A DNA stretch of 64,000 nucleotides. It comes from Escherichia coli (GTDB taxonomy: Bacteria; Pseudomonadota; Gammaproteobacteria; Enterobacterales; Enterobacteriaceae). Below are positions 1,088-56,638 of the stretch, piece after piece. Made by a program: the position numbers and the translations under genes. How positions within the stretch are numbered: the first letter of the stretch is position 1; every line of letters starts with the position of its first letter. The stretch is taken from the NCBI RefSeq assembly GCF_003018255.1, contig NZ_CP027440.1, one strand, 5' to 3'. The notes below the pieces were generated by a model. That model ran no database searches. It saw only the letters and a program-made list of their open reading frames with translations, and had not been told where the DNA came from.

Positions 1088-2761
1088 TCAGGAGAGATAT
1101 TCCGCCACCGGACCAAGCGCCAGGGCAGGGATAAAGGTCAGTGCGCCAACCAGCAACACGGTGCCGATTAACAGGCCAACAAACAGCGGGCCGTGCGTTG
1201 GCAGCGTGCCGGAGCTGGCGGGCTGGCTCTTTTTACTCACCAGCGAACCGGCAATTGCCATCACCGGGATAATTACCCCGAAGCGACCGACAAACATGCA
1301 GAACGCCAGCAAACAGTTCCAGAATGGAGAGTTGGCGCTTAATCCGGCAAAGGCGCTGCCGTTGTTGTTAGCGGCGGATGACACGGCGTACAGCACTTCG
1401 CTAAAACCATGCGGGCCAGGGTTGAGCATGGCGCTACGTCCGGCGTCGGTCATCATTGCCAGCGCCGCGCCCATCAGCGCCAGCGTTGGGGTGACCAGAA
1501 TCGCCAGCGCGGTCAGTTTCATCTCGCGTACGTCGATTTTTTTACCCAGATATTCCGGTGTACGACCAATCATCAGCCCAGCAATAAACACCGCCAGCAG
1601 GACAAACAGCATCATGCCGTAAAGACCAGAACCGACACCGCCGAACACCACTTCACCAATTTGCATCAGCCACATCGGCACCATGCCACCAAGAGCGGTA
1701 AACGAATCATGCATCGCAATCACCGCGCCACAGGAAGCCGCCGTAGTCACGACCGCAAACAGGCTACTGACCAGCACGCCGAAACGACTCTCTTTACCTT
1801 CCATATTGATGCTGCTGTCCGCGCCCAGTGCCAGCAGATGCGGATTACCCTGAACTTCTGCCCACATCACCACGCCTGTGCAGATGATAAAAATCACTGA
1901 CATCGCCCACAGCAACATGCGCCCCTGACGGCGATCGCCCGCCACTTCGCCAAAGGCAAAGCACAGCGCTGTTGGGATCAAGAAGATCGCCAGCATCTGC
2001 ACGAAGTTGGTCAGTGCGGTTGGGTTTTCAAACGGATGCGACGAGTTGGCATTAAAGAAGCCACCGCCGTTAGTGCCGAGCATCTTGATCGCTTCCTGAG
2101 AAGCTACAGGCCCCATGGGTAACAGCTGTTGCGCTCCTTCAACGGTATTCACCGCCTGATAGGGCAGAAAGTTTTGCAGCGCACCTTGTTGAATAAAAAA
2201 CAATGCGATCAACAACGCCACAGGGACTAGCACCCATAACGTGATGCGTAGCAGATCGACCCAGGCATTCCCGAGTGTGCTCATGCTCTGGCGGGTAAAT
2301 GCACGTATGAGGGCAAAAATCACCGCAATCCCGCTGGCGGCAGAAAGAAAGTTTTGCACCGTTAAGCCCGCCATCTGGCTGAAATAGCTCAACGTGGTTT
2401 CACCGCTGTAAGATTGCCAGTTGGTATTTGTGACAAAGCTGACGGCGGTATTCAGCGCCAGATCCCACGACAGTCCTGGCAACTGCTGTGGATTAAGCGG
2501 CAGATAGTGCTGACCGAGCAACATAAAAAACAGCACCGCCAGCCCCAGTATATTCAGGCCAAGAATGGCTGAGAGATACTGCTTCCAGTTCATCTCGCGG
2601 TCAGAGACGCCAAGCGCGCGAAAAAGTACGCGCTCAACGCCCGTCGTACCGGGAAGAGGAATGTCATTAATCAGCCGCGCCAGCCCGCTGCCTAAAGGAC
2701 GCGCCAGCACCATTAACACCAGTAAAAACGTGGCAATCAGTAAGAACCCTTGCGCAGCCAT
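1088..2761 (-). CDS. kdpA: Potassium-transporting ATPase subunit A (557 aa)
   Basis: ORF 1088..2905 contains the KdpA sequence from [24 protein letters not shown]; start ATG at 2759-2761 overlaps the kdpF stop (ATGA). Confidence 0.95.
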
Positions 2762-2850
2762 CAGAACGCCTCCGCATTGATCAGGGCATAAACCAGATAA
2801 CCCAGTAATAAAAACACCAGCAACACGCCGGCTATCACGCCTGCACTCAC
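2761..2850 (-). CDS. kdpF: KdpF, 29-aa membrane peptide of the Kdp complex, GTG start
   Basis: Translation [30 protein letters not shown] read from the C-terminus of ORF 2761..2964; stop overlaps kdpA start. Confidence 0.85.
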
Positions 2851-2923
2851 AGTGCACCTCCAGTGGCCTAAAAGTGATACCGGAAGAGTAGAATTCTGGC
2901 TGCAAAGATTTCGCAAAAATCTG

Positions 2924-2955
2924 CGGGCGGGGTGTAAAAAAAGTATAAAAATGGC
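2924..2955 (-). promoter_or_regulatory. Probable KdpE response-regulator box upstream of kdpF
   Basis: Minus-strand sequence CATTTTTATACTTTTTTTACACCCCGCCCG with TTTATA/TTTACA half-sites, about 75-105 bp upstream of the kdpF start; matches the KdpE operator as I remember it. Confidence 0.55.
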
Positions 2956-3162
2956 AAAAGCCATGATTTAACTAATGTTTAGTATTAATTTAACCTTTGT
3001 GTAACTTAATTACGGTATGAATGTAAATAAACCATCAATAAGCAAAAATAAGTGGTCGGATGAGTAGTAAAATTACACAAAAGGCGGTACTATTTTCATC
3101 AGATAAACAAATTCATTTTTCCGGTGCTATTCACCGGGTAGATACAAAAGGGGGAGAAAAGT

Positions 3163-3613: not shown

Positions 3614-6600
3614 ATGAGCGGAAAACCGGCGGCGCGTCAGGGCGACATGACGCAGTATGGCGGTAGCATTGTTCAGGATTCAGCCGGGGTACGTATTGGT
3701 GCCCCCACCGGCGTGGCCTGTTCGGTGTGCCCCGGCGGGGTGACGTCCGGCCATCCGGTCAATCCGCTGCTCGGTGCGAAGGTCCTTCCCGGCGAAACCG
3801 ACCTTGCCCTGCCCGGCCCGCTGCCGTTCATCCTCTCCCGCACCTACAGCAGTTACCGGACAAAAACGCCCGCGCCGGTGGGGAGCCTCGGCCCCGGCTG
3901 GAAAATGCCTGCGGATATCCGCTTACAGCTGCGCGATAACACACTGATACTCAGTGATAACGGCGGCAGAAGCCTGTATTTTGAGCACCTGTTTCCCGGT
4001 GAGGACGGTTACAGCCGCAGCGAGTCACTCTGGCTGGTGCGCGGCGGCGTGGCGAAACTGGATGAAGGTCACCGGCTGGCCGCACTCTGGCAGGCGCTGC
4101 CGGAAGAGCTTCGCCTGAGTCCGCATCGTTATCTGGCGAAGAACAGTCCGCAGGGGCCGTGGTGGGTATTCGGCTGGTGTGAGCGGGTGCCGGAGGCGGA
4201 TGAGGTGCTGCCTGCGCCGCTGCCGCCGTACCGGATACTGACCGGGCTGGTGGACCGCTTCGGGCGCACACAGACGTTTCACCGTGAGGCTGGCGGCGAA
4301 TTCAGCGGCGAAATCACCGGCGTGACCGACGGCGCAGGCCGTCACTTCCGGCTGGTACTGACCACGCAGGCGCTGCGGGCAGAAGAGGCCCGGCAGAAGG
4401 CCACTTCCGGCGGGACGGAACCGTCCGCTTTTCCTGATACCCAGCCGGACTACACGGAATATGGCCGGGACAACGGTATCCGTCTGTCTGCCGTGTGGCT
4501 GACGCACGACCCGGAATACCCGGAGAATTTACCTGCCGCGCCGCTGGTACGCTATGGCTGGACGCCGCGCGGCGAACTGGCGGCGGTGTATGACCGCAGC
4601 AATACACAGGTGCGCAGCTTTACTTACGATGATAAATACCGGGGCCGGATGGTGGCGCACCGTCACACGGGCCGGCCGGAAATCCGTTACCGTTACGACA
4701 GTGACGGGCGGGTGACAGAACAGCTAAACCCGGCAGGCTTAAGCTACACGTATCAGTATGAGAAAGACCACATCACCATCACCGACAGCCTGGACCGCCG
4801 TGAAGTGCTGCACACGCAGGGCGAAGGCGGGCTGAAGCGGGTGGTGAAAAAGGAACACGCGGACGGCAGCGTCACGCAGAGTCAGTTTGACGCGGTGGGC
4901 AGGCTTAAGGCACAGACGGATGCCGCAGGCCGGACGACTGAGTACAGCCCGGATGTGGTGACCGGACTCATCACGCGCATCACCACGCCGGATGGCAGGG
5001 CATCGGCGTTTTACTATAACCACCACAGCCAGTTAACGTCAGCCACCGGGACTGACGGGCTGGAGTTGCGCAGGGAATATGATGAATCCGGCCGTCTGAT
5101 TCAGGAAACTGCCCCTGACGGCGATATCACCCGCTACCGTTATGATAATCTACACAGTGAATTACCCTGCGCAACGGAAGATGCCACCGGCAGCCGGAAA
5201 ACCATGACATGGAGCCGTTACGGTCAGTTGCTGACCGTCACTGACTGTTCCGGTTATGTAACCCGTTATGACCATGACCGTTTTGGTCAGATGACGGCGG
5301 CGCACCGCGAGGAAGGGCTGAGTCAGTATCGCGCATACGACAGCCGTGGACAGTTAATTGCGGTGAAAGACATGCAGGGCCATGAAACGCGGTATGAATA
5401 CAACGCCGCCGGTGACCTGACCGCCGTCATTGCCCCGGACGGCAGCAGAAACGGGACACAGTACGATACGTGGGGAAAGGCCATCCGTACCACGCAGGGT
5501 GGTCTGACGCGCAGTATGGAATACGATGCTGCCGGACGGGTCATCCGCCTGACCAGTGAAAACGGCAGCCACACCACCTTCCGTTACGATGTACTCGACC
5601 GGCTGATACAGGAAACCGGCTTTGACGGCCGCACACAGCGTTATCATCACGACCTGACCGGTAAACTTATCCGCAGCGAGGATGAGGGGCTGGTCACCCA
5701 CTGGCACTATGACGAAGCAGACCGCATCACGCACCGCACCGTGAAGGGTGAAACCGCAGAACAGTGGCGGTACGACGAACGCGGCTGGCTGACACAAATC
5801 AGCCATCTCAGCGAAGGCCACCGGGTGACGGTGCATTACGGGTATGATGAGAAAGGCCGCCTGACCGGTGAGCGCCAGACGGTACATCACCCGCAGACGG
5901 AAGCACTGCTCTGGCAGCATGAGACCAGACATGCGTACAACGCGCAGGGGCTGGCGAACCGCTGTATACCGGACAGCCTGCCCGCCGTGGAATGGCTGAC
6001 TTACGGCAGCGGCTGGCTGGCAGGCATGAAACTCGGCGACACACCGCTGGTGGATTTCACCCGTGACCGCCTGCACCGGGAAACGCTGCGCAGCTTCGGC
6101 CGTTATGAACTCACCACCGCTTATACCTCTGCCGGGCAGTTACAGAGCCAGCACCTGAACAGCCTGCAGTATGACCGCGATTACACCTGGAACGACAACG
6201 GCGAACTCATCCGCATCAGCAGCCCGCGACAGACCCGGAGTTACAGCTACAGCGACTCCGGCAGGCTGACCGGCGTCCACACCACCACCTCAAATCTGGA
6301 TATCCGCATCCCGTATGCCACGGACCCGGCAGGTAACCGCCTGCCCGACCCGGAGCTGCACCCGGACAGCACCCTCAGCATGTGGCCGGATAACCGTATC
6401 GCCCGTGACGCGCACTATCTTTACCAGTATGACCGTCACGGCAGGCTGACAGAGAAAACCGACCTCATCCCGGAAGGGGTTATCCGCACGGATGATGAGC
6501 GGACTCACCGGTACCATTACGACAGCCGGCACCGGCTGGTGCACTACACGCGGACACAATATGCAGAGCCGCTGGTCGAAAGTCGCTATCTTTACGACCC

Positions 6601-7300
6601 GCTGGGGCGCAGGGTGGCAAAACGGGTATGGCGGCGTGAACGGGACCTGACGGGCTGGATGTCGCTGTCACGGAAACCGGAAGTGACCTGGTACGGCTGG
6701 GACGGCGACCGGCTGACCACAATACAGAACGACAGAACCCGCATCCAGACGGTTTATCAGCCGGGGAGCTTCACGCCACTCATCAGGGTCGAAACTGCCA
6801 CCGGTGAGCTGGCGAAAACGCAGCGCCGCAGCCTGGCGGATGCGCTTCAGCAGTCCGGCGGTGAAGACGGTGGCAGTGTGGTGTTCCCGCCGGTGCTGGT
6901 GCAGATGCTCGACCGGCTGGAAAGTGAAATCCTGGCTGACCGGGTGAGTGAGGAAAGCCGCCGCTGGCTGGCATCGTGCGGCCTGACGGTGGAGCAGATA
7001 CAAAACCAGATGGACCCGGTGTACACGCCGGCGCGAAAAATCCACCTGTACCACTGCGACCATCGCGGCCTGCCGCTGGCGCTTGTCAGCACGGAAGGGG
7101 CAACAGAATGGTGCGCAGAATACGATGAATGGGGCAACCTGCTGAATGAAGAGAACCCGCACCAGCTGCAGCAGCTCATCCGCCTGCCGGGTCAGCAGTA
7201 TGATGAGGAGTCCGGCCTGTATTACAACCGCCACCGCTATTATGACCCGCTGCAGGGGCCAGGGAAAGATCACGTAACGCTGCTTTTTTGTACTAAATAA
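3614..7300 (+). CDS. rhsC: Rhs core protein of the RhsA/B/C subfamily (1228 aa), C-terminally truncated just before the DPxGL boundary; no toxin tip
   Basis: GC-rich ORF with YD-repeat core; N-terminus [21 protein letters not shown]; ends ...[13 protein letters not shown] then 13 unrelated codons ([13 protein letters not shown]) and stop. Confidence 0.9.
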
Positions 7301-8255
7301 TTCGCATTTTATGTTTAAAAATTGAGATATTCCTCATTACCTAAAGCTGTTTTTCATTGCTTATACATGATCAAATACTCCTTACATAATTAAGGAGAAC
7401 AAAATGGAACTTAAAAAATTGATGGAGCATATTTCTATTATCCCAGATTACAGACAAGCCTGGAAAGTGGAACATAAATTGTCTGATATTCTACTGTTGA
7501 CTATTTGTGACGTTATTTCTGGTGCAGAAGGTTGGGAAGATATAGAGGATTTTGGGGAAACACATCTCGATTTTTTAAAACAATATGGTGATTTTGAAAA
7601 TGGTATTCCTGTTCACGATACCATTGCCAGAGTTGTATCCTGTATCAGTCCTGCAAAATTTCACGAGTGCTTTATTAACTGGATGCGTGACTGCCATTCT
7701 TCAGATGATAAAGACGTCATTGCAATTGATGGAAAAACGCTCCGGCACTCTTATGACAAGAGTCGCCGCAAGGGAGCGATTCATGTCATTAGTGCGTTCT
7801 CAACAATGCACAGTCTGGTCATCGGACAGATCAAGACGGATGAGAAATCCAATGAGATCACAGCTATCCCGGAACTTCTTAACATGCTGAATATTAAAGG
7901 AAAAATAATCACAACTGATGCGATGGGTTGCCAGAAAGATATTGCAGAGAAGATACAAAAACAGGGCGGTGATTATTTATTCGCTGTAAAAGGAAACCAG
8001 GGGCGGCTAAATAAAGCCTTCGAGGAAAAATTTCCGCTGAAAGAATTAAATAATCCAGAGCATGGCAGTTACGCAATGAGTGAAAAGAGTCACGGCAGAG
8101 AAGAAATCCGTCTTCATATTGTTTGCGATGTCCCTGATGAACTTATTGATTTCACGTTTGAATGGAAAGGGCAGCCATGGACAGAAAATATCTGGCGTCA
8201 GTCCTTGCGGGGAGCGTGCTTTCGTAATTTTGCCCTGCTACAACAGGATTAACTT
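7258..8255 (+). mobile_element. H-repeat (ISAs1-family) element remnant fused to the 3-prime end of the Rhs core
   Basis: Rhs homology stops after the DPLQG codons at about 7257; AT-rich leader then an H-repeat transposase ORF with an internal deletion; no terminal inverted repeat seen at the right end. Confidence 0.7.
7404..8252 (+). pseudogene. H-repeat-associated (ISAs1-family) transposase, internally deleted and frameshifted (282 codons; intact homologs are about 378 aa as I recall)
   Basis: N-terminus [35 protein letters not shown] typical of YhhI/YdcC-like H-repeat proteins; after ...FEWKG the frame changes and the expected C-terminus ([16 protein letters not shown]) is readable in another frame at 8177-8227. 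Confidence 0.75.
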
Positions 8256-23680: not shown

Positions 23681-24388
23681 TTAAGGTCTCCTTAGCGCCT
23701 TATTGCGTAAGACTGCCGGAACTTAAATTTGCCTTCGCACATCAACCTGGCTTTACCCGTTTGTTATTTGGCTCGCCGCTCTGTGAAAGAGGGGAAAACC
23801 TGGGTACAGAGCTCTGGGCGCTTGCAGGTAAAGGATCCATTGATGACGAATAAATGGCGAATCAAGTACTTAGCAATCCGAATTATTAAACTTGTCTACC
23901 ACTAATAACTGTCCCGAATGAATTGGTCAATACTTCCACACTGTTACATAAGTTAATCTTAGGTGAAATACCGACTTCATAACTTTTACGCATTATATGC
24001 TTTTCCTGGTAATGTTTGTAACAACTTTGTTGAATGATTGTCAAATTAGATGATTAAAAATTAAATAAATGTTGTTATCGTGACCTGGATCACTGTTCAG
24101 GATAAAACCCGACAAACTATATGTAGGTTAATTGTAATGATTTTGTGAACGGCCTATACTGCCGCCAGGTCTCCGGAACACCCTGCAATCCCGAGCCACC
24201 CAGCGTTGTAACGTGTCGTTTTCGCATCTGGAAGCAGTGTTTTGCATGACGCGCAGTTATAGAAAGGACGCTGTCTGACCCGCAAGCAGACCGGAGGAAG
24301 GAAATCCCGACGTCTCCAGGTAACAGAAAGTTAACCTCTGTGCCCGTAGTCCCCAGGGAATAATAAGAACAGCATGTGGGCGTTATTC

Positions 24389-27618: not shown

Positions 27619-27742
27619 CCGTAGGCCTGAGAAGACGCGCAAGCGTCGCATCAGGCAACCAGTGCCGGATGCGGCGTGAACGCCTTATCCGGCCTACAAG
27701 TCATTACCCGTAGGCCTGATAAGCGCAGCGCATCAGGCGTAA
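27619..27742. repeat. Cluster of REP (BIME-type) palindromic elements between sdhB and sucA
   Basis: Three imperfect palindromes of the GCCTGATGCGACGC / GCCGGATGCGGCGTGAACGCCTTATCCGGCCTAC type in alternating orientation. Confidence 0.8.
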
Positions 27743-39643: not shown

Positions 39644-39681
39644 TTATTGCGCTAAAAGTGTATCTGAGGGGGGCAATAATT

Positions 39682-39712
39682 TCAGGCCATCTTCGGATGG
39701 CCTGAGATTGTT
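39682..39712 (+). terminator. Probable terminator after mngB
   Basis: Hairpin TCAGGCCATC-TTCG-GATGGCCTGA followed by a T-rich stretch. Confidence 0.55.
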
Positions 39713-39787
39713 GATAAACAAGTTTGTTAGCTTACGCAGATACCAGATTTGACCTGCGTGAGAACCGCAGGCCATTTATCATTTCAG

Positions 39788-41185
39788 TTACCCCTTAAAC
39801 GTTAACCACGGTCGAAATCTGACCGCTGGCTGAATTAATCCGGCTTCTTGTTGGGCTTCGATAACCGGACCAATATCTTTATAAGCCGCTGGCGCTTCTT
39901 CAAAACGTCGTTCTTCGCGCAATGTGACGCATTGCCACGGCAGCGTTGACTCTTCAGTCGCGCGTGAGCGCATGGCCTGCCGACGCTGGCTGCGTCCTGC
40001 TCCGTGACTGCATGACCACAGCCACTCCGGGTTGCCGCAACCTACCGCAAGCCACGAATAATCGCCCATTGAACCGGGGATTAACGCCAGATTGCCCACT
40101 CGTGCCGGTGTTGCGCCTTTGCGATGAATATTCATTTCATGCTCGCGAAGGATGATGTTATGTGGCACATCCACCACCAGATGCGAATTGTCCTGATGAA
40201 AGAGATTGGCAAGACATACGCGCACCATTTCGGCAATTGTGACGCGATTTAACCATGCGTAACGCGCCGCCATTCCTATCGCTTGTAGATATTCCTCCGC
40301 CAGTCCGCCTGCCAGACCATATAACCCGCTTTGTGGATGTTTATGTCCGGTGGGCCATTCAGCACGGGCGCGATCCATCCAGCGTCTTCCGACGTAAAAG
40401 CCAACATCTCGCGATCCACTGTGGATCATCACCACAATATCGCCTGTTTTCAGCCCTTGTTGCCAGGCTACATGGCGATCAACCACGCTATCAACGACCT
40501 GAAGTTCAATAAAATGATTACCTGAACCCGGCGTACCCAGACAAGGATCGCGGAGTAATGCGCGGTCCGTTGCCTGCAGGGCGGGTGGGGCATAACGCGA
40601 ATGACTGTTATGCTCGTTAAGCCCAATGCAGCGGTCAATCTCTTGTACCATTCGGGGGATATTCGTGCGTATCCAGAGACCTTCTGATGGCAAGGTCGAC
40701 ACGCAATCTGCCGGTCCGCCATCAAAAAGCGCGGTGAACGCCTGTGCGGATAACGGAACATCGCGCTCATTTTGCAGTAGCACTTGCGTTAACCGCTGAG
40801 CGATGACGTCTTTATGCGCTTCGGCTTGCTCAAGTGTTAATCCGGTCGTCAGCAGCCGCATGCCACAAGAAATATCGGTGCCGATGGCGGCGGGAATGAC
40901 TAAATCCGGCGTTGAGGCCACCACCGCGCCAACGGGGACGCCATTGCCGGGATGAAAATCTGGCGTCGCGCACGTCTGGCGCACATAACCTGGGTGGTCT
41001 GGTAGCTTCACTTCTGCAAAATCAAGCAGTTGTGTTACTGCTTTTTCTTCCAGCGGCAGTTCGTCCGGCAGCAGTACGCGGGCACTGGCACCTGATGGAC
41101 GAGATAATGAAACAATATTGTTGGCGCGGGAAAGTTGGATCCCTTTGCGCAGAAAGGCTTTATCAAGCCTTGAAAGATGATGCAT
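39788..41185 (-). CDS. RtcB-family RNA 3-prime-phosphate ligase paralog (465 aa), orphan
   Basis: Conserved RtcB motifs: TPDFHPGNG, IPAAIGTDISCGMRLL, GTPGSGNHFIELQ, MIHSGSRDVG, IPGSMG, CSHGAGR, AYKDIGPVIEAQ; N-terminus about 30 aa longer than canonical RtcB; start codon uncertain. Confidence 0.85.
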   Translation of the reverse strand: MHHLSRLDKAFLRKGIQLSRANNIVSLSRPSGASARVLLPDELPLEEKAVTQLLDFAEVKLPDHPGYVRQTCATPDFHPGNGVPVGAVVASTPDLVIPAAIGTDISCGMRLLTTGLTLEQAEAHKDVIAQRLTQVLLQNERDVPLSAQAFTALFDGGPADCVSTLPSEGLWIRTNIPRMVQEIDRCIGLNEHNSHSRYAPPALQATDRALLRDPCLGTPGSGNHFIELQVVDSVVDRHVAWQQGLKTGDIVVMIHSGSRDVGFYVGRRWMDRARAEWPTGHKHPQSGLYGLAGGLAEEYLQAIGMAARYAWLNRVTIAEMVRVCLANLFHQDNSHLVVDVPHNIILREHEMNIHRKGATPARVGNLALIPGSMGDYSWLAVGCGNPEWLWSCSHGAGRSQRRQAMRSRATEESTLPWQCVTLREERRFEEAPAAYKDIGPVIEAQQEAGLIQPAVRFRPWLTFKG

Positions 41186-41490
41186 AACGCTGTCCTGAAA
41201 TATAGACGTTAAACAACCCCCTGTATGGCGAGGGTAATTTTGTCTTTCCGGTCAGCAGCCAGCAAAAGGGAAAGAAAACGCGCGTAGTGTATGTGGCGAT
41301 AGCAAGTGTTACAAGTGGTAAATCTGGCTTATTGTTAAAGAGGAATTATCTTTTGTGAAGTCTTTTAAGGCCATGACTCATTCAATTTAACCGGACATAG
41401 ATAATATATAACATAGGGTATCTAAATTTATCATTGTATACTTGTCATAATTCAAGTTGCATGTGCTGCATCGATGTTCGCTCACCCAGG

Positions 41491-42060
41491 TCACTTACTT
41501 ATGTAAGCTTCTGGAAATTCATTATTTGTTCCCTTCCTGCAACTTGACTTATTTAGAGTATATTCATGTATACACATCGAGATTTCAGCCAGCAGACGCG
41601 CATCTGGCGTGCCGTGGCGGATCTGTAGCGGTTTTTGCAGAGTTTCGGTGAGGCGACGGCAAGCTGCAACGCCGTGGTTAACGACCGGTAAACCGTTCAG
41701 TTTAGAGGTTCCGGCTTCGATGGATTTTTTAATCCCTACAGCCGCTTCTTCGTACCGATTCAGACGGGTATATGCATCGATGGTGCTCGGCAGCAGATCG
41801 CACTCTTCTTGTAGTGTTTTCAGTAGTTCGATGTGTTCGTCCATCAGCGCCACACCTGCGCGCGGTTGGCTAAGGGTTTTACCTTCCTTGTCTGCTTTCA
41901 ACAGCGCAAGAGAGAAGCGTTTATGCTCAGGAATGGTTTGTTGGTATTTAACGCCATCTTCAAAGTTTTCAACATCCTTGCCGGTTTCCCAGGTTTTCAG
42001 TACCTGTTGCCGCTCGGTCATGAATTCGTCATGGGTTAATTTCTTATTTCGAAGTTCCAT
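41491..42060 (-). pseudogene. glmE: Glutamate mutase E (epsilon) subunit, truncated: 189 codons versus about 480 in intact homologs
   Basis: [33 protein letters not shown]...[20 protein letters not shown]...[15 protein letters not shown]...[13 protein letters not shown] resembles the GlmE N-terminus; similarity ends near codon 165, then 24 unrelated codons and stop. Confidence 0.75.
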
Positions 42061-42078
42061 TGATTGCAGCCTTAATTG

Positions 42079-43467
42079 TTATAGGGTTAAGCATTGAATA
42101 CTGGTGCGCGCGGCGGCCAGCGGATCGACTCTGGCGACGTTTGCCAGCAGTGGTAATAGCCCCCGGGAATCGCGGTAATATTCAAATTCGGTCGGTAAGA
42201 GAATGCGTTTACCGTCGTCGTTTAACTCGCGGTATTTCAACCAGTGATGCATATCGAACTGACTGGCACGCGAGAGCCATCCGCCGGATCCGACGACTTT
42301 ACGCACGGTTGTCAGGTCACGTCCCATCTGTAAATCGACATTGCCGACGCAGGTGCAGACCTCTTTTTTGGTGCCCGCATGTCTTTCGGTGGCATAACCC
42401 ACACACAGTCCGGCCAGGACGGTATCGAAATATTTTTCTTCTGCATTCGCGGGTAAGTAGTCGGGATGAGCGACTAGATGACGGAGGTAATGATAAAAAG
42501 CGTCCAGCTGTGCGGGTTGCTGAGCAAAATTCACATTGACTAACTCTTTCGCACTTTCACCAACCACCATTGCCGAGACGCGCATTCCCAGATCTCCTTC
42601 CACCGTCCGTTTTACGAAGGGTTCCGGTACGCCATGTAAAACAGTGTCGGGCGAGAGCGTGTTGGCACTGGCGGAATAGACATCGGTGGTTGCGCCACCC
42701 ATGTCGATCAGCATGAACTCTTTCCAGCTGTGATCGACATTACTGATTGCCTTAACCAGTTCAAAGACTGTCCACGGTGTCGGCATTGGTTCTTCGCCTG
42801 TTTTATCAACAACGACATCCAGCCCTTTCCCTTTAACGATGCGTTTAAGGAATATGTCGCAGATAGCCTGGCGTGCAGCTAAAGGGTTCGGATGGTCAAG
42901 ATCGGGCAGAACGTTGTCGACGATGGTCAGGTCTTTATGCCCGAGGATCTCCTGCACCTCGTCCTGAATATCCCGGTTTCCGGCATAAATAATGGCGCAG
43001 TCGAGTTTGGATTCTGCCAACACACGGGCGTTATTCAGTCCGTAGCTTTCTTCTCCGCCATCGGTGCCGCCGGTGAACAAGAGAATATCGGGCTGCGTTT
43101 CTTCCAGTGCCTGGATATCACGGCGGTTCAGCTTGTAGGCGTAAGATTGCGCAATTTTAGCACCCGCAGAGTGAGCGGTTACTTTCGCGGTTTCCAGGGT
43201 GATAGAAGGCACCAATCCCATTGCGGCAACCGCCAGCCCACCTTTGGCAGAGGAGGAATACTTCAATGCAACCTCACCACTGTTTAACAGGGGGAGGGCA
43301 TCATCTACGTTTAACACCTGGTCCAGGCTGGAGAAAAACCCCTTCGCCAGATGATGGGTGGTGGTTGGGGTCAGTACGTGGTTAACCAACGTTAACGCGT
43401 CCCCCTCCCGGGCGAAGAGGGCTGCTTTGGTCCACGTCGATCCAATATCGACAGAGACGATTTGCAT
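42079..43467 (-). CDS. glmL: Glutamate mutase accessory protein GlmL/MutL-like (462 aa)
   Basis: [18 protein letters not shown]... actin/Hsp70-like ATPase fold; translationally coupled to glmS (TGATG overlap); placed between glmS and glmE as in clostridial operons. Confidence 0.75.
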   Translation of the reverse strand: MQIVSVDIGSTWTKAALFAREGDALTLVNHVLTPTTTHHLAKGFFSSLDQVLNVDDALPLLNSGEVALKYSSSAKGGLAVAAMGLVPSITLETAKVTAHSAGAKIAQSYAYKLNRRDIQALEETQPDILLFTGGTDGGEESYGLNNARVLAESKLDCAIIYAGNRDIQDEVQEILGHKDLTIVDNVLPDLDHPNPLAARQAICDIFLKRIVKGKGLDVVVDKTGEEPMPTPWTVFELVKAISNVDHSWKEFMLIDMGGATTDVYSASANTLSPDTVLHGVPEPFVKRTVEGDLGMRVSAMVVGESAKELVNVNFAQQPAQLDAFYHYLRHLVAHPDYLPANAEEKYFDTVLAGLCVGYATERHAGTKKEVCTCVGNVDLQMGRDLTTVRKVVGSGGWLSRASQFDMHHWLKYRELNDDGKRILLPTEFEYYRDSRGLLPLLANVARVDPLAAARTSIQCLTL

Positions 43468-43916
43468 CAGATTGCCTCTTCAAGAATACGAGTATCAACG
43501 TCATGACGTTGGTTGATATCGTGGGCCATCAGCTGACAAACATCTTCTAAGTCATGACTTGGGGCAAAGACGCGATCAAATCCCATCTCTTTGAATTTGG
43601 TTTCCACGTCAGCGAAGTCATGTTTTCCGACCACCAGGTTACCGCCCACATAGAGCAGGATGTCCCCCAGTCCACGCTCGATGCAGCGTTCGCGCATGCC
43701 CAGACAGTCGATATCGCCATGCCCATAGATAGAGGAGACGACAATCGCGTCAGCACCAGTTTCAATGGCAGCATCAATATATTCGTCCTGGCTGACCATT
43801 ACGCCCAGATTAATAACTCTGAAGTCATGGTTGCTAAAAACGCGGTCCAGAACTTTATTGCCTACTGCATGGCAGTCCGCGCCAATAACGCCAATCACAA
43901 GTGTTGCTTTCTTCAT
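43467..43916 (-). CDS. glmS: Glutamate mutase S (sigma) subunit, B12-binding (149 aa)
   Basis: [24 protein letters not shown]... with the DxHxxG cobalamin-binding motif; AGGA RBS 7 nt upstream of this ATG (the listed ORF extends 21 codons further upstream). Confidence 0.8.
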
Positions 43917-44463
43917 GGGTAATCCTTTGTAAGACAGAGAGTAAAATAAGTTACACACGTCGTATTTATGGCCGCTCATAACGGCACAGGTTTAATATCA
44001 CAGGAGTGTCTTTATCTGACCGTAATGTTGCAATTGATCTATTTTCAAAATGTCTTTCGGGAAATGATTGTTTAAAGTGTGTTTTCAAATTCTCATGTTA
44101 ATTCAGTGTGTTATGTCAACTAATGTCATGAATGTTAAATTTTTAAAATTAACTTGATTTGATGTATTGAGATAATTGTGATCAACTTCTAATTTGCATT
44201 TTAGTGATATGGGGTTAGCCATGAGTAAATGCATTTCATAAAAGTTAAGTCGAATTTCACTGCAATTCATCTCTGCTTAATGTAAAAATAATGTTGAAAA
44301 TAACAAATAATTAATGATTCATGCGAATTATGACCTTTGTTAGCTCTTTTGATTTTTCGTAAAAAAGAAAAGTACATGAAGGTGCTACCAGTACGAGAAA
44401 CGTTAATCAAAAGTTTTATTACGTCTGGCAATAACGCAGGCCATTTTTCGCGACAGGAGGGAT

Positions 44464-44886
44464 TTAATCAGTATAATCCTCATACAATAGGTCAGGATTT
44501 ACAGAACCGTTAACGGGGTTTTGGTGTTGAAATTTAGAAATGGTGGAGTCAATCAATGAAGACAGTATCGAAAAAATGACTGTGTCAGAATTAATTTCAA
44601 TTAATCCTTCTCGTTGTTGACCAAAAAAGATATTTATCTTGATTTCATTTGTACTACGGAAATCAATATGTAGTAATTTTTGATCGCTGAGATTTTCTGT
44701 TTCATAAATGTTTTTGGCGATAGTCGGATGTATTGATGCCAGACATCTGCTCAGATAAGCCAGATCCTTTAGGGAACACCCCGCTGAGTAGAGGATGTCA
44801 GAGAATTTTTGTGTGTCAACTGTTGGCTCTGAAGCGTATGTTGCATTGACTGGAAGGGTGTTGAAGGAGATTTGAGATGGGATCAT
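44464..44886 (-). CDS. Hypothetical protein (140 aa), small and acidic, low GC
   Basis: Intact ORF MIPSQISFNTLPVNATYASEPTVDTQKF...; no recognisable motif; sits in an AT-rich segment of the island. Confidence 0.5.
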   Translation of the reverse strand: MIPSQISFNTLPVNATYASEPTVDTQKFSDILYSAGCSLKDLAYLSRCLASIHPTIAKNIYETENLSDQKLLHIDFRSTNEIKINIFFGQQREGLIEINSDTVIFSILSSLIDSTISKFQHQNPVNGSVNPDLLYEDYTD

Positions 44887-44966
44887 TATTTAAATCTTTC
44901 CGTGAGTAATAAAAATTAATCCCCGGGCATTGTTTAGTAATATTTGCCACAGGGGATATATAAAAA

Positions 44967-45911
44967 TTAAAGTATTTGATTGGCATCGGTTAACTGATCA
45001 ATAACCAGTGCCAGATTGGTAAACATTTTGAAAAAGCGATACTGGCTCGGAATATCTCTTTCAAAGACGAAACATTCAATGTCATTGTTTGAAAAATAAA
45101 GGACTAGTGATGCTGATTCGTCAGGAAAAATATGGAAATATATCTGGTTACCAGAAGGAGGATAGTCCAGAAGAAGGGTATCTTTGCCCGTCACATACCT
45201 GTTGTGGTCGTGGATGCTGCGCTCACACTTCATCAGAGGTGTCATGATACTCATGTATTCATCTGATGTTAATATATTAAAATCACCATCCATTTTAAAG
45301 AAACGATAAAGTAACAGTACATCCTCTTGCGTAACCGGTTCGTTTGTTTTTAGAGGGAAATAAGTGGGAACCAGAAGATGAGGTTCTAATCTATTTTGTT
45401 GAGCGCTATAACTAAATTTGAACATAAATTCCGGATCGCTCATCAATTGAGCGACATAATTATGCCTGGCTTCAAAAATTTTAACTTTTATCAGGTTAAA
45501 TAAGTCTGTTTCGTCATCCTGTATTAAAAGACATTGGCCATAGCAGCCAGGCTTTTTTTCATTATAAGCAGAAACGGTTATTCTGTCAGGAGTGTCAACG
45601 TTATATCCAAAAGCCAGATAGTGACCTTCCTCATCGAGATTTGTTTCCAGGTTATTTAAATTCATCACATGAAGTGTTTGCAATGCTGATTCAATGAGCT
45701 GTTGACTCTCTGAGGTAAATGTTTCGCGCTGCGTTGTATAAAGTGTATCGATTCCAACGACTATCCGATGTGGGTCAAGGATGGCGGCAATCATCTTTAT
45801 TACCTGCACAGTCATGGGTGATGTCATTGATTCTTTATCTGTTTTTAGAGGATCATTAGATGGCCAACCTGAGAAGCGATTGACAGCAGAACTGATAATA
45901 TCAGGACTCAT
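44967..45911 (-). CDS. Hypothetical protein (314 aa), low GC
   Basis: Intact ORF MSPDIISSAVNRFSGWPSNDPLKTDKESM...; GAGG RBS 8 nt upstream of ATG; no signal peptide or TM helix evident; no family recognised. Confidence 0.6.
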   Translation of the reverse strand: MSPDIISSAVNRFSGWPSNDPLKTDKESMTSPMTVQVIKMIAAILDPHRIVVGIDTLYTTQRETFTSESQQLIESALQTLHVMNLNNLETNLDEEGHYLAFGYNVDTPDRITVSAYNEKKPGCYGQCLLIQDDETDLFNLIKVKIFEARHNYVAQLMSDPEFMFKFSYSAQQNRLEPHLLVPTYFPLKTNEPVTQEDVLLLYRFFKMDGDFNILTSDEYMSIMTPLMKCERSIHDHNRYVTGKDTLLLDYPPSGNQIYFHIFPDESASLVLYFSNNDIECFVFERDIPSQYRFFKMFTNLALVIDQLTDANQIL

Positions 45912-46365
45912 AGCAGCAACCTCATTGTAATCAAGCGAGGCGCTGAGCGTACTCGGCTATAGAAAAACTAACTTGCAAAAATCGCTCATTTTTCATTTAT
46001 CAGGCGAAAGTGGTCTCTGTTCACTCAGAAACAATCACTCCCGCTAAGTCATACCTGTTTCATCGATACATTTAAGTGATTATTACTAATGAAACAATAA
46101 CATAATGGGCTTACGGCCGGTGCTCATAAACGCAACAATCAATTAACTTTGATAAAAATATGTTATGTAAAATAGCAACAAATTGGCTAATCTAATCAAT
46201 TGGTATTATAAAAAGTGGATAAGGCGGTTCTGTTAAATAAAACACTGGTTTTTTATCTATACCTTTTCATTGTAATAATTGTGTTGCATAAATATTTCAC
46301 AATAAATTAACAATAAAATCACCAATGATCTATGGTTTATACATAATTAACATATTTGGTTGATT

Positions 46366-46379
46366 TTGATATAAATCAA
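46366..46379. promoter_or_regulatory. FNR/CRP-type palindromic site in the cydA upstream region
   Basis: Perfect TTGAT-ATAA-ATCAA (TTGAT N4 ATCAA) about 340 bp upstream of cydA in an AT-rich leader. Confidence 0.55.
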
Positions 46380-46716
46380 TTTTTAATTCTTGAAAAAAAT
46401 CTGCAAAACACGATAAATTGTCGTAGATCAAATTGGTGAGATCGTGACAATTTCGCTATAAATTGATCACTGTCGAAAAATGCAAATTTGCTCAATAAAA
46501 ACCTGTTTATTGTAAGGATTTTGCGGCGTAATATAATTACGGGATCAATTTGGTTTATTCATTAACACATTTGTAACTTTTTTATCATTGTCTTTTCCTC
46601 TTTTGATGAAATGGCAACGATAGAGGCGAGCAAATAATTTTGTATTGGGGCATGCGTGTGACCCTTTCTAACGGGGTTCACTCTCGGAGTCTTCATGCGA
46701 TGAGCAAGGAGTCATG

Positions 46717-48285
46717 ATGTTAGATATAGTCGAACTGTCGCGCTTACAGTTTGCCTTGACCGCGATGTACCACTTCCTTTTTGTGCCACTGACGCTCGGT
46801 ATGGCGTTCCTGCTGGCCATTATGGAAACGGTCTACGTCCTTTCCGGCAAACAGATTTATAAAGATATGACCAAGTTCTGGGGCAAGTTGTTTGGTATCA
46901 ACTTCGCTCTGGGTGTGGCTACCGGTCTGACCATGGAGTTCCAGTTCGGGACTAACTGGTCTTACTATTCCCACTATGTAGGGGATATCTTCGGTGCGCC
47001 GCTGGCAATCGAAGGTCTGATGGCCTTCTTCCTCGAATCCACCTTTGTAGGTCTGTTCTTCTTCGGTTGGGATCGTCTGGGTAAAGTTCAGCATATGTGT
47101 GTCACCTGGCTGGTGGCGCTCGGTTCAAACCTGTCCGCACTGTGGATTCTGGTTGCGAACGGCTGGATGCAAAACCCAATCGCGTCCGATTTCAACTTTG
47201 AAACTATGCGTATGGAGATGGTGAGCTTCTCCGAGCTGGTGCTTAACCCGGTTGCTCAGGTGAAATTCGTTCACACTGTAGCGTCTGGTTATGTGACTGG
47301 CGCGATGTTCATCCTCGGTATCAGCGCATGGTATATGCTGAAAGGTCGTGACTTCGCCTTCGCTAAACGCTCTTTTGCTATCGCTGCCAGCTTCGGTATG
47401 GCTGCCGTTCTGTCTGTTATTGTTCTGGGTGATGAATCTGGTTACGAAATGGGCGACGTGCAGAAAACCAAACTGGCTGCTATTGAAGCCGAGTGGGAAA
47501 CGCAACCTGCGCCTGCTGCCTTTACTCTGTTCGGCATTCCTGATCAGGAAGAGGAGACGAACAAATTTGCGATCCAGATCCCTTACGCGCTGGGCATCAT
47601 TGCAACGCGTTCCGTGGATACTCCAGTTATCGGCCTGAAAGAACTGATGGTGCAGCATGAAGAACGCATTCGTAACGGGATGAAGGCGTACTCTCTGCTC
47701 GAGCAACTGCGTTCTGGTTCTACCGACCAGGCGGTTCGTGACCAGTTCAATAGCATGAAGAAAGACCTCGGTTACGGTCTGCTGCTGAAACGCTATACGC
47801 CAAACGTGGCTGATGCGACTGAAGCGCAGATTCAACAGGCAACCAAAGACTCCATTCCGCGTGTAGCGCCGCTGTACTTCGCGTTCCGTATCATGGTGGC
47901 GTGTGGCTTCCTGCTGCTGGCAATCATCGCGCTCTCTTTCTGGAGTGTCATCCGCAACCGCATTGGCGAGAAAAAATGGCTGCTGCGCGCCGCGCTGTAC
48001 GGTATTCCGCTGCCGTGGATTGCTGTAGAAGCGGGCTGGTTCGTGGCTGAATATGGTCGCCAACCGTGGGCTATCGGTGAAGTGCTGCCGACAGCTGTGG
48101 CGAACTCGTCACTGACCGCAGGCGATCTCATCTTCTCAATGGTGCTGATTTGCGGCCTGTATACCCTGTTCCTGGTGGCAGAATTGTTCTTAATGTTCAA
48201 ATTTGCACGCCTCGGCCCAAGCAGCCTGAAAACCGGTCGCTATCACTTTGAGCAGTCTTCCACGACTACTCAGCCGGCACGCTAA
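46717..48285 (+). CDS. cydA: Cytochrome bd-I ubiquinol oxidase subunit I (522 aa)
   Basis: [41 protein letters not shown]... Confidence 0.97.
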
Positions 48286-48300
48286 GACAGGAGTCGTCAA

Positions 48301-49440
48301 ATGATCGATTATGAAGTATTGCGTTTTATCTGGTGGCTGCTGGTTGGCGTTCTGCTGATTGGTTTTGCAGTCACTGACGGTTTCGACATGGGGGTGGGCA
48401 TGCTCACTCGTTTCCTCGGTCGTAACGACACCGAGCGTCGAATTATGATTAACTCCATTGCACCACACTGGGACGGTAACCAGGTATGGCTTATCACCGC
48501 GGGCGGCGCACTCTTTGCTGCCTGGCCGATGGTCTATGCCGCTGCGTTCTCCGGCTTCTATGTGGCGATGATCCTCGTGCTGGCGTCTTTGTTCTTCCGT
48601 CCGGTCGGTTTTGACTACCGCTCCAAGATTGAAGAAACCCGCTGGCGTAACATGTGGGACTGGGGCATCTTCATTGGTAGCTTCGTTCCGCCGTTGGTGA
48701 TTGGTGTAGCGTTCGGTAACCTGTTGCAGGGCGTACCGTTCAACGTTGATGAATATCTGCGTCTGTACTACACCGGTAACTTCTTCCACCTGCTTAATCC
48801 GTTCGGCCTGCTGGCAGGCGTGGTGAGCGTAGGGATGATCATTACTCAGGGCGCAACCTATCTGCAAATGCGTACCGTGGGCGAACTGCACCTGCGTACC
48901 CGTGCAACGGCTCAGGTGGCGGCACTGGTGACACTGGTCTGTTTCGCACTGGCTGGCGTATGGGTGATGTACGGTATCGATGGTTATGTCGTGAAATCGA
49001 CAATGGACCATTACGCAGCCTCTAACCCACTGAATAAAGAAGTGGTTCGTGAAGCTGGCGCATGGCTGGTTAACTTCAACAACACGCCAATTCTGTGGGC
49101 TATTCCGGCACTGGGTGTGGTTCTGCCGCTGCTGACCATCCTGACTGCACGTATGGATAAAGCGGCGTGGGCGTTTGTGTTCTCCTCCCTGACGCTGGCC
49201 TGCATCATCCTGACAGCCGGTATCGCAATGTTCCCGTTTGTGATGCCGTCCAGCACCATGATGAACGCAAGTCTGACAATGTGGGATGCAACTTCCAGCC
49301 AGCTGACGCTTAACGTCATGACCTGGGTTGCGGTGGTTCTGGTACCGATCATTCTGCTCTACACCGCCTGGTGTTACTGGAAAATGTTCGGTCGTATCAC
49401 CAAAGAAGATATTGAACGTAACACCCACTCTCTGTACTAA
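48301..49440 (+). CDS. cydB: Cytochrome bd-I ubiquinol oxidase subunit II (379 aa)
   Basis: MIDYEVLRFIWWLLVGVLLIGFAVTDGFDMGVGML... Confidence 0.97.
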   Translation: MIDYEVLRFIWWLLVGVLLIGFAVTDGFDMGVGMLTRFLGRNDTERRIMINSIAPHWDGNQVWLITAGGALFAAWPMVYAAAFSGFYVAMILVLASLFFRPVGFDYRSKIEETRWRNMWDWGIFIGSFVPPLVIGVAFGNLLQGVPFNVDEYLRLYYTGNFFHLLNPFGLLAGVVSVGMIITQGATYLQMRTVGELHLRTRATAQVAALVTLVCFALAGVWVMYGIDGYVVKSTMDHYAASNPLNKEVVREAGAWLVNFNNTPILWAIPALGVVLPLLTILTARMDKAAWAFVFSSLTLACIILTAGIAMFPFVMPSSTMMNASLTMWDATSSQLTLNVMTWVAVVLVPIILLYTAWCYWKMFGRITKEDIERNTHSLY

Positions 49441-49454
49441 GTAAGGAGCTAAAA

Positions 49455-49568
49455 ATGTGGTATTTCGCATGGATTCTGGGAACGCTTCTTGCCTGTTCGT
49501 TTGGGGTAATCACCGCGCTGGCGCTTGAGCACGTCGAATCAGGCAAAGCCGGTCAAGAAGACATCTGA
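49455..49568 (+). CDS. cydX: Cytochrome bd-I accessory small protein CydX (37 aa)
   Basis: MWYFAWILGTLLACSFGVITALALEHVESGKAGQEDI with AGGAG RBS; below the ORF-track length cut-off; stop overlaps ybgE start. Confidence 0.85.
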   Translation: MWYFAWILGTLLACSFGVITALALEHVESGKAGQEDI

Positions 49569-49861
49569 TGAGTAAGATTATCGCAACCTTGTATGCGGTA
49601 ATGGACAAGCGCCCCCTGCGGGCGCTTTCCTTCGTGATGGCGCTTCTGTTAGCAGGATGTATGTTTTGGGACCCATCACGTTTCGCCGCGAAGACCAGTG
49701 AACTGGAAATCTGGCATGGTTTATTGCTGATGTGGGCCGTCTGTGCTGGTGTGATTCACGGCGTGGGCTTTCGTCCGCAGAAGGTTCTTTGGCAAGGGAT
49801 TTTTTGCCCATTGCTTGCCGATATTGTTCTCATTGTCGGGCTGATTTTCTTCTTCTTTTAA
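49568..49861 (+). CDS. ybgE: Small membrane protein YbgE of the cyd operon (97 aa)
   Basis: MSKIIATLYAVMDKRPLRALSFVMALLLAGCMFWDP... Confidence 0.85.
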   Translation: MSKIIATLYAVMDKRPLRALSFVMALLLAGCMFWDPSRFAAKTSELEIWHGLLLMWAVCAGVIHGVGFRPQKVLWQGIFCPLLADIVLIVGLIFFFF

Positions 49862-54301: not shown

Positions 54302-54847
<546 letters not shown>

Positions 54848-54856
54848 GAGAATTGC

Positions 54857-55648
54857 ATGAGCAGTAACTTCAGACATCAACTATTGAGTCTGTCGTTACT
54901 GGTTGGTATAGCGGCCCCCTGGGCCGCTTTTGCTCAGGCACCAATCAGTAGTGTCGGCTCAGGCTCGGTCGAAGACCGCGTCACTCAACTTGAGCGTATT
55001 TCAAATGCTCACAGCCAGCTTTTAACCCAACTCCAGCAACAACTCTCTGATAATCAATCCGATATTGATTCCCTGCGCGGTCAGATTCAGGAAAATCAGT
55101 ATCAACTGAATCAGGTCGTGGAGCGGCAAAAGCAGATCCTGTTGCAGATCGATAGCCTCAGCAGCGGTGGTGCAGCGGCGCAATCAACCAGCGGTGATCA
55201 AAGCGGTGCGGCGGCATCAACGACGCCGACAGCTGATGCTGGTACTGCGAATGCTGGCGCGCCGGTGAAAAGCGGCGATGCAAACACGGATTACAATGCA
55301 GCAATTGCGCTGGTGCAGGATAAATCCCGCCAGGATGAAGCAATAGTGGCATTTCAGAATTTCATCAAAAATTACCCTGATTCAACTTACCTGCCAAACG
55401 CCAATTATTGGCTGGGTCAGTTAAACTACAACAAGGGTAAAAAAGATGATGCGGCGTATTATTTTGCTTCGGTAGTGAAAAACTATCCGAAGTCACCGAA
55501 GGCTGCAGATGCGATGTTTAAAGTCGGCGTCATCATGCAGGACAAAGGTGACACCGCAAAAGCGAAAGCCGTATACCAGCAGGTTATCAGTAAATACCCT
55601 GGTACTGATGGCGCTAAACAGGCGCAAAAACGTCTGAACGCGATGTAA
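54857..55648 (+). CDS. cpoB: Cell division coordinator CpoB (YbgF), TPR protein (263 aa)
   Basis: MSSNFRHQLLSLSLLVGIAAPWAAFAQ signal peptide, coiled coil, TPR repeats. Confidence 0.95.
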   Translation: MSSNFRHQLLSLSLLVGIAAPWAAFAQAPISSVGSGSVEDRVTQLERISNAHSQLLTQLQQQLSDNQSDIDSLRGQIQENQYQLNQVVERQKQILLQIDSLSSGGAAAQSTSGDQSGAAASTTPTADAGTANAGAPVKSGDANTDYNAAIALVQDKSRQDEAIVAFQNFIKNYPDSTYLPNANYWLGQLNYNKGKKDDAAYYFASVVKNYPKSPKAADAMFKVGVIMQDKGDTAKAKAVYQQVISKYPGTDGAKQAQKRLNAM

Positions 55649-55812: not shown

Positions 55813-55888
55813 GGGTCGTTAGCTCAGTTGGTAGAGCAGTTGACTTTTAATCAATTGGTCGCAGGTTCGAATCCTGCACGACCCACCA
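55813..55888 (+). tRNA. lysT: tRNA-Lys (anticodon UUU)
   Basis: GGGTCGTTAGCTCAGTTGGTAGAGCAGTTGACTTTTAATCAATTGGTCGCAGGTTCGAATCCTGCACGACCCACCA. Confidence 0.95.
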
Positions 55889-56023
55889 ATCGCTAAGGTG
55901 GAAGCGGTAGTAAAACGTGAAGGATAACGTTGCGTCAGCAACGGCCCGAAGGGCGAGACGAAGTCGAGTCATCCTGCACGACCCACCACTAACCTAGTTA
56001 GTTGTAGTATCCAGCGTAGTATC

Positions 56024-56099
56024 GGGTGATTAGCTCAGCTGGGAGAGCACCTCCCTTACAAGGAGGGGGTCGGCGGTTCGATCCCGTCATCACCCACCA
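56024..56099 (+). tRNA. valT: tRNA-Val (anticodon UAC)
   Basis: GGGTGATTAGCTCAGCTGGGAGAGCACCTCCCTTACAAGGAGGGGGTCGGCGGTTCGATCCCGTCATCACCCACCA. Confidence 0.95.
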
Positions 56100-56101
56100 C
56101 C

Positions 56102-56177
56102 GGGTCGTTAGCTCAGTTGGTAGAGCAGTTGACTTTTAATCAATTGGTCGCAGGTTCGAATCCTGCACGACCCACCA
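56102..56177 (+). tRNA. lysW: tRNA-Lys (UUU)
   Basis: Identical to the lysT sequence. Confidence 0.95.
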
Positions 56178-56228
56178 CTAATTACGGTGGGTTCGGTGGA
56201 AGTAGTTTGTAGTATTCAGCGCAGTATC

Positions 56229-56304
56229 GGGTGATTAGCTCAGCTGGGAGAGCACCTCCCTTACAAGGAGGGGGTCGGCGGTTCGATCCCGTCATCACCC
56301 ACCA
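56229..56304 (+). tRNA. valZ: tRNA-Val (UAC)
   Basis: Identical to the valT sequence. Confidence 0.95.
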
Positions 56305-56307
56305 CTC

Positions 56308-56383
56308 GGGTCGTTAGCTCAGTTGGTAGAGCAGTTGACTTTTAATCAATTGGTCGCAGGTTCGAATCCTGCACGACCCACCA
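56308..56383 (+). tRNA. lysY: tRNA-Lys (UUU)
   Basis: Identical to the lysT sequence. Confidence 0.95.
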
Positions 56384-56529
56384 GTTTTAACATCAAACTC
56401 AGATGTTAAGCGTGAAGGATAACGTTGCGCCAGCAACGGCCCGTAGGGCGAGCGAAGCGAGTCATCCTGCACGACCCACCAATTTTAAAGATTGGTTCCG
56501 AGTAGAAATCTTTCAGGTAACACCCGTAT

Positions 56530-56605: not shown

Positions 56606-56638
56606 TCCTGAATGATTAAAGCAGCATAATCCCGCAAG

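Follow-up and report, generated by a model that had tools for sequence, protein, structure and literature searches.

Among the described small membrane proteins closest to those considered here, KdpF binds to KdpABC and makes the complex more stable, and CydX, which is purified together with CydAB, is required for the activity of the oxidase, in which it probably stabilises the di-haem site (both reviewed in PMC12648545). KdpF is present as a chain in solved structures of KdpFABC (PDB 6hra chain D, and also 5mrw), and CydX (YbgT), subunit X of the cytochrome bd-I ubiquinol oxidase, is chain X of structures 6rko and 6rx4. A third small protein that is relevant to the same chromosomal region, YbgU, has been detected in Escherichia coli K-12 by epitope tagging (PMC6001520). 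Upstream of cydA, three ArcA-binding regions and several transcription starts have been described, together with a repression by H-NS that is relieved by ArcA (PMC3798270). In addition, a RIBOseq study of the O157:H7 strain Sakai used three growth conditions, in LB and BHI media, and took in every intergenic ORF with a length of 30 aa or more (PMC5597208).

The window analysed here, meaning the whole 64,000-nt stretch of DNA, is a piece of the E. coli chromosome that runs from kdpBAF to aroG. Its gene order, based on the RefSeq annotation of the closest genomes and on the window's own ORFs, begins with kdpB-kdpA-kdpF, ybfA, an Rhs element, ybfD, ybgA-phr, gltA, sdhCDAB-sucABCD and mngRAB, and continues with an inserted island, cydA-cydB-cydX-ybgE, tol-pal, a Lys/Val tRNA cluster, and nadA through aroG. 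The RefSeq genomes used for comparison are 100% and 99.9% identical to the window over the compared stretches, and a match to the 1-kb stretch around kdpF is present in 5423 of the 5426 complete E. coli genomes, with an identity of 100% in two of these. A first-pass annotation of this DNA had singled out kdpF and cydX as genuine small membrane proteins with translational coupling to their neighbours, and had suggested that two AT-rich intervals of the island (43980-44463 and 45912-46300) might likewise hide small proteins. The reading favoured here, with a probability of roughly 0.9, is that the flagged ORFs are the known kdpF and cydX genes and that the two AT-rich intervals encode no protein.

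The kdpF CDS lies at 2761..2850 on the minus strand, as judged from its translation and from RefSeq, Pfam and NCBIfam. It reads GTG AGT GCA ... TTC TGA, from a GTG start to a TGA stop, and specifies a hydrophobic peptide of 29 aa. The GTG start is also used in K-12 (b4513), and RefSeq places kdpF at identical coordinates in the genome that is 100% identical to the window. The peptide scores 27.8 bits against PF09604 (cut-off 21.2) and 74.3 bits against NF011332 (cut-off 56), and the curated cut-off of TIGR02115 is also passed. Over its full length, 28 of 29 residues are identical to the KdpF chain of the solved structures, and this identity to the 6hra and 5mrw chains supports the prediction that the protein is a single transmembrane helix bound in KdpFABC. 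The K-12 protein differs from that of the window by a single residue (T7A), and is otherwise equal in GTG start, length and overlap with kdpA; the K-12 gene has one further, synonymous change, and its promoter region has one base change. Nothing functional is implied by these differences. As a 29-aa single-helix subunit, KdpF stabilises the KdpFABC K+-ATPase.

Within the kdpFABC operon, kdpF is the first gene and is placed directly upstream of kdpA (1088..2761 in the RefSeq annotation), with kdpB downstream and all of the genes on the minus strand. The start of kdpF is preceded by a Shine-Dalgarno (SD) sequence, GGAGGTG (2855..2861, minus strand), that was identified by its sequence and by its duplex energy with the anti-SD (-10.6 kcal/mol), a value that places it in the top 0.1% when all 2834 starts of small ORFs across the window are ranked. 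At the other end of the gene, the termination codon of kdpF (2763..2761) and the AUG of kdpA (ATG, 2761..2759) share one nucleotide, creating the arrangement TGATG (2759..2763, minus strand). The SD of kdpA, GGAGG (2773..2769, minus strand; energy -9.5), is found inside kdpF.

In the case of cydX, the CDS (49455..49568, plus strand; 37 aa) is recognised by RefSeq, PF08173, TIGR02106 and the match to chain X of 6rko. It is located 46.6 kb from kdpF, and the positions 2761-2850 that had been assigned jointly to both small genes correspond to kdpF only. The scores are 53.9 bits against PF08173 (cut-off 26.2) and 70.7 bits against TIGR02106 (cut-off 31.6), all 37 of 37 residues agree with chain X of 6rko, a structure of cytochrome bd-I, and the same holds for chain X of 6rx4. 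No difference was detected from the described CydX, including its place between cydB and ybgE. The gene sits directly downstream of cydAB, where the cydB stop codon (49438..49440) is separated from the cydX start (49455) by a gap of 14 nt that contains an SD, AAGGAG (49443..49448, plus strand), 6 nt before the ATG and with an energy of -8.4 kcal/mol, in the top 0.9% of small-ORF starts in the window. A second TGATG is present at 49566..49570 on the plus strand, where the cydX stop codon overlaps by one nucleotide with the ATG of ybgE; in the annotation, ybgE appears as directly abutting. In the Sakai RIBOseq data, cydX (ECs5391) is fully covered, with a coverage of 1.00. As a 37-aa single-helix subunit, CydX is required for both the assembly and the activity of the cytochrome bd-I oxidase.

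Thus, kdpF and cydX are known, experimentally established small membrane-protein genes, and the first-pass annotation was right to call proteins of 29 and 37 aa genuine, as is borne out by the family cut-offs, by RefSeq and by the structure chains. Each is translated from a polycistronic operon mRNA by way of its own strong SD site. The proposal of coupling to the neighbouring genes holds in part. The stop/start overlap by which coupled pairs are recognised is present as TGATG at both kdpF/kdpA and cydX/ybgE, and because these codons overlap, and because the kdpA SD is contained in kdpF, it is reasonable to suppose from the layout that translation of kdpA is probably coupled to that of kdpF, and translation of ybgE to that of cydX. 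Upstream of cydX, in contrast, the 14-nt gap does not fit this arrangement: the tie between cydX and cydB is one of proximity and not of overlap, and cydX has its own SD.

The first-pass annotation had also stated that the mechanical ORF list, which has a threshold of 60 aa, misses genes of fewer than 60 codons, and this is accurate for both genes, albeit by different routes. The cydX gene falls below the threshold, and kdpF is masked by longer ORFs. The only ORF that the list holds in the kdpF frame is one of 67 aa (2761..2964) that starts at an upstream in-frame ATG, and kdpA, listed as 1088..2905, is over-extended and masks kdpF as well. The upstream extension of kdpF (2851..2964, minus strand, from the ORF list) is spurious and spans the kdp promoter region; it shares 99% identity with K-12, precedes the GTG at which the annotated gene begins, and includes a T-rich box that we take to be the KdpE-binding region.

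Annotated genes of fewer than 60 codons in the window number three rather than two, the third being ybgU (23886..23993, minus strand), a gene of 35 aa between gltA and sdhC that had not been mentioned before. Its product is identical in sequence to K-12 YbgU, scores 100.5 bits against PF23495 (cut-off 27), and is not hydrophobic. The SD of ybgU is weak, at only -4.3, and an SD filter alone would therefore miss real small genes. For the same reason, the island intervals were not judged by their SD sites alone; since the validated ybgU has only -4.3, a weak SD is compatible with translation and does not exclude it. A further candidate, a 16-aa ORF at 39732..39782 that follows rtcB (with a strong SD, 5 nt past the rtcB stop codon), was rejected as junction DNA because homology to the rtcB module ends at 39793 in most of the genomes that carry the module.

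Relative to K-12, the inserted island extends over about 39647..46340. In O157:H7, the island holds a complete glutamate-fermentation cluster, consisting of genes for a fumarase, a transporter and methylaspartate ammonia-lyase and the mutase genes E, L and S, with two hypothetical genes after the cluster. The island of the window is degraded, with mutase E truncated and an RtcB paralogue in place of the distal genes. The segment 43900..46075 is present in 1134 of 5426 genomes. The 140-aa and 314-aa hypothetical proteins of the island have no significant match in PADLOC, PHROGs, Pfam or NCBIfam, and a search with the 140-aa protein of 100,044 GTDB species genomes returned only two loci, in metagenome-assembled genomes labelled Collinsella and Citrobacter. 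By blastn, the contigs of both are E. coli-like DNA with about 98-99% nucleotide identity to the island of the window. As far as can be judged from these searches, the low-GC module of the island is confined to Escherichia-like sequences and, because of this restricted distribution, the divergence available for comparison is shallow (no more than about 4%) and the counts are small.

The two intervals are AT-rich, as had been described (GC 0.25-0.36). Neither contains a convincing candidate gene by any of several measures. When every ORF of 3-59 codons in the two intervals was scored, no SD energy of -7 or below was obtained (the 5% quantile over the whole window being -6.1). The lengths of the ORFs were compared with 1000 dinucleotide-preserving shuffles, and their conservation was assessed in an alignment of seven alleles of the island, whose identity to the window is 96.1-99.2%; the results are given below for each interval. 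No Pfam or NCBIfam match was obtained for the candidate small ORFs, and PGAP calls no gene in either interval in the eight island-bearing genomes that were inspected. Rfam returned nothing in the intervals, whether the whole window was searched at gathering thresholds or positions 43850-46750 at E-values of up to 1. A repeat search gave only short two-copy matches of the kind expected by chance. In the promoter and terminator scan, counts were not above those in shuffles, and no terminator-like sites were seen in the intervals. In the RIBOseq study of Sakai, which is an island-bearing strain, neither interval has an entry among the translated ORFs (30 aa or longer), with cydX detected in the same data, although the island may be silent under the conditions used. 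Small-ORF prediction with scoring of ribosome-binding sites and ribosome-profiling data, the two checks that the first-pass annotation had named, thus both speak against hidden small proteins in the intervals, as do the chance-like lengths and the broken ORFs. As far as the available divergence allows such a judgement, no conserved small ORF preceded by a ribosome-binding site is present in the intervals.

The first interval is a 547-bp AT-rich spacer (43917..44463; GC 0.32) that reaches from the stop codon of the 140-aa gene to the start of glmS, with the flanking genes all on the minus strand. It begins at 43917 and not at 43980, the true start of glmS being at 43916. The longest ORF in this interval is 55 aa, compared with a mean of 54 aa in the shuffles, 42% of which reach 55 aa. 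Other ORFs, of 40, 29, 54, 58 and 26 aa, have lost the start codon, gained a stop codon or suffered a frameshift in 3-5 of the seven alleles, and the best SD energy anywhere in the interval is -5.4. Most likely, the interval is best read as a non-coding region upstream of the glm operon (glmS-glmL-mutE) and downstream of the 140-aa gene. Whatever signals separate the 140-aa gene from the glm operon must be contained in this spacer. A promoter role may be inferred from this position; the promoter and terminator scan detected nothing promoter-like on the minus strand here.

The pattern of variation in this spacer bears on a different reading, in which what the AT-rich intervals specify is not a protein but an RNA, either a small regulatory one or a cis-regulatory one. 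In the seven alleles, a single site varies within the 153 bp that adjoin glmS (43917-44069), which are thus almost invariant, and about 10% of sites are variable in the remainder of the interval. This pattern fits the boundary of two modules with different histories, or a conserved promoter and 5' UTR. An RNA would be consistent with this near-invariance, and with the fact that both intervals are long untranslated gaps adjoining operons. However, the invariance may simply reflect low diversity of the adjoining glm module. Furthermore, the glmS-proximal 201 nt show no excess of RNA structure (fold z-score 0.05), and neither the relaxed Rfam search nor the scan for terminator-like sites provided a candidate in the intervals. 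A regulatory RNA is therefore considered improbable, and a non-coding spacer upstream of the glm operon is retained as the preferred reading of the first interval.

The longest ORF of this spacer, at 44103..44270 on the minus strand, merits separate consideration, as it could be a real, Escherichia-restricted orphan small protein that is expressed from the strand of the island genes. The ORF shares its strand with the flanking genes, is intact in 9 of 9 alleles seen, and has a history in annotation. An exact-sequence look-up identifies it as the legacy "hypothetical protein Z0896" of O157:H7 strain EDL933; it is also called by some other pipelines, and it belongs with Z0896 to a 113-member protein cluster at 90% identity. 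Z0896 is itself no more than a name, no experimental support having been found for it. RefSeq, however, has dropped the ORF, and the current Sakai record passes over the locus tag ECs_0765. No papers on Z0896 or ECs0765 came up in literature searches, ECs0765 is absent from all tables of the Sakai RIBOseq study (PMC5597208), and the 55-aa sequence has no Pfam, NCBIfam or PHROG match. The SD energy of the ORF is -0.6, and its length, as noted, is one that shuffled sequence often attains.

The substitutions in this ORF argue in the same direction. Variable sites are spread over the three codon positions as 4/5/6, and the seven alleles encode six distinct proteins. The pN/pS of the ORF is 0.91, as compared with 0.17 for the 140-aa gene and 0.43 for the 314-aa gene, and lies within the range of 0.47-0.94 obtained for six null frames of the same interval. 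That the frame has stayed intact is not informative, because only 6.7% of single substitutions would break it and intactness thus has a probability of about 0.36 for 15 neutral substitutions. The 55-aa ORF appears to evolve neutrally, with no purifying selection seen at a shallow divergence that affords limited power, and it is most likely not a gene; a genuine orphan protein at this position is given very little credence.

The second interval (45912-46300) was considered together with the region upstream of cydA (45912..46716), between the 314-aa gene on the minus strand and cydA on the plus strand. Breakpoints of homology divide this region in three: 45912..46075 is restricted to island-bearing genomes, 46076..46340 is common to a non-island lineage at about 92% identity, and 46341..46716 is common to K-12 at about 82% identity. 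The longest ORF in the interval is 24 aa, shorter than the mean of 46 aa in the shuffles, 99% of which reach at least 24 aa. Most likely, the interval is a divergent promoter and regulatory region, with the 314-aa gene on one side and cydA on the other, and its cydA-proximal part belongs to the known ArcA-, FNR- and H-NS-controlled cydA control region.

Much shorter reading frames are the basis of another possibility, whereby the glm operon or the 314-aa gene is under the control of upstream ORFs or leader peptides of fewer than 15 codons that the intervals carry. The best SD energies of the second interval are those of a 12-codon ORF that starts with GTG at 46024 (-6.9) and of a 13-codon ORF that starts with TTG at 46034 (-6.2), with a GGGAG-like site before the two starts; both are on the minus strand, which is also that of the 314-aa gene, and are positioned about 110-120 nt upstream of that gene. 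Among all ORF starts in the window, however, such energies rank only at around the top 5%, and neither start is an ATG codon. In addition, the one variable site of the 12-codon ORF is at the second position of a codon, there was no sign of an attenuator-like structure or of a terminator, and the first interval has nothing better than the -5.4 cited above. Leader peptides are accordingly regarded as highly improbable, and a divergent promoter and regulatory region remains the favoured interpretation of the second interval.

Closer to cydA, and outside the interval for which small proteins had been suggested, is XECs075 (46470..46565, plus strand), a 31-codon ORF with a CTG start in the conserved cydA leader; the published coordinates of the ORF are offset by one. 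It is the only ORF near the island that is flagged by RIBOseq in the supplements of PMC5597208, and the sole entry between genome positions 831793 and 882228; the authors' own classifier labelled it 'pseudo'. A TTG start at 46488 in the same region has an SD energy of 0.1. There is scarcely any likelihood that either this ORF (31 codons, CTG start) or the 55-aa ORF is genuinely translated and represents an Escherichia-restricted micro-protein or regulatory upstream ORF of recent origin, removed in the course of curated annotation.

The products of the two flagged small genes are textbook small membrane-protein subunits, and the fact that a threshold of 60 codons hides such genes is already well known. 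At kdpF, mechanical ORF lists are in addition misleading, in that an in-frame extension and an over-extended kdpA ORF take the place of the true gene. For the AT-rich gaps of the island, no hidden-gene explanation is needed: their base composition may reflect promoter DNA and DNA subject to H-NS-type silencing rather than coding sequence.

The first-pass annotation had listed two genes of fewer than 60 codons, kdpF and cydX, and a third lies in the same window. This is ybgU (23886-23993, minus strand), the gene for a validated 35-aa protein in the gap between gltA and sdhC, the product of which is identical in sequence to that of K-12. The Shine-Dalgarno (SD) site at ybgU is weak, with an anti-SD duplex energy of -4.3 kcal/mol.

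A 31-codon ORF with a CTG start, XECs075, is found on the plus strand in the conserved leader of cydA (46470-46565). Ribosome profiling of O157:H7 Sakai reports this ORF as translated, with an RCV of 1.71 in LB, and the classifier used by the authors of that study labels it 'pseudo' (PMC5597208). No nonsynonymous variation is found in XECs075 among seven aligned island alleles, in a region that is nearly invariant throughout. On the minus strand, a 16-codon ORF (39732-39782) is positioned 5 nucleotides past the rtcB stop codon and has a strong SD site (-8.4 kcal/mol). Because homology stops at 39793 in most of the genomes that carry the rtcB module, this ORF looks like an artefact of the junction and was rejected as a gene.

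Three kinds of Rfam match occur elsewhere in the window, all outside the kdpF and cydX finding: the CpoB/ybgF thermometer (54748-54886, 142 bits), naRNA4 (27624-27694, minus strand, 82 bits), and four RtT elements (55820-57026) that are interleaved with the Lys/Val tRNA cluster. The Rhs region (3614-8252) differs from that of L001 (3614-11021 in that genome), which is identical to the window at kdpF. It is shorter by ~2.85 kb, with the Rhs core ORF ending at 7300 and followed directly by a ybfD (ISAs1-family) ORF, and it lacks both the toxin-tip and immunity genes that are annotated in L001.

The island itself (39647-46340) is a degraded version of the glutamate-fermentation (methylaspartate) island of O157:H7. 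Relative to the latter, mutase subunit E is truncated (41491-42060), and the genes for ammonia-lyase, an AtuA-like protein, a transporter, and fumarase are missing, their place being occupied by an RtcB-family paralogue (39788-41185) whose module is present in 289 of 5426 genomes. In the spacer upstream of glmS, the 153 bp adjoining that gene (43917-44069) contain a single variable site, whereas the other 394 bp (44070-44463) contain 39. This abrupt shift in diversity points to a boundary, either from recombination or between modules, or else to conservation of the glm promoter and leader.

Beyond this spacer are two low-GC hypothetical genes on the minus strand, encoding proteins of 140 aa (44464-44886) and 314 aa (44967-45911). 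Variation in the island alignment peaks in the 80 bp that separate them (44887-44966), where 18.5% of columns vary and one indel occurs. Neither protein has a match in Pfam, NCBIfam, or PADLOC, and the sole PHROG match, to the 140-aa protein, is insignificant (E = 0.051). With the 140-aa protein as query, GTDB species genomes yielded only Escherichia-like DNA; one matching contig, JAIJJM010000209.1, comes from a MAG labelled Collinsella sp. but is 98.9% identical to E. coli island DNA and is probably a binning contaminant. With pN/pS values of 0.17 for the 140-aa gene and 0.43 for the 314-aa gene, both are under purifying selection despite the absence of family matches.
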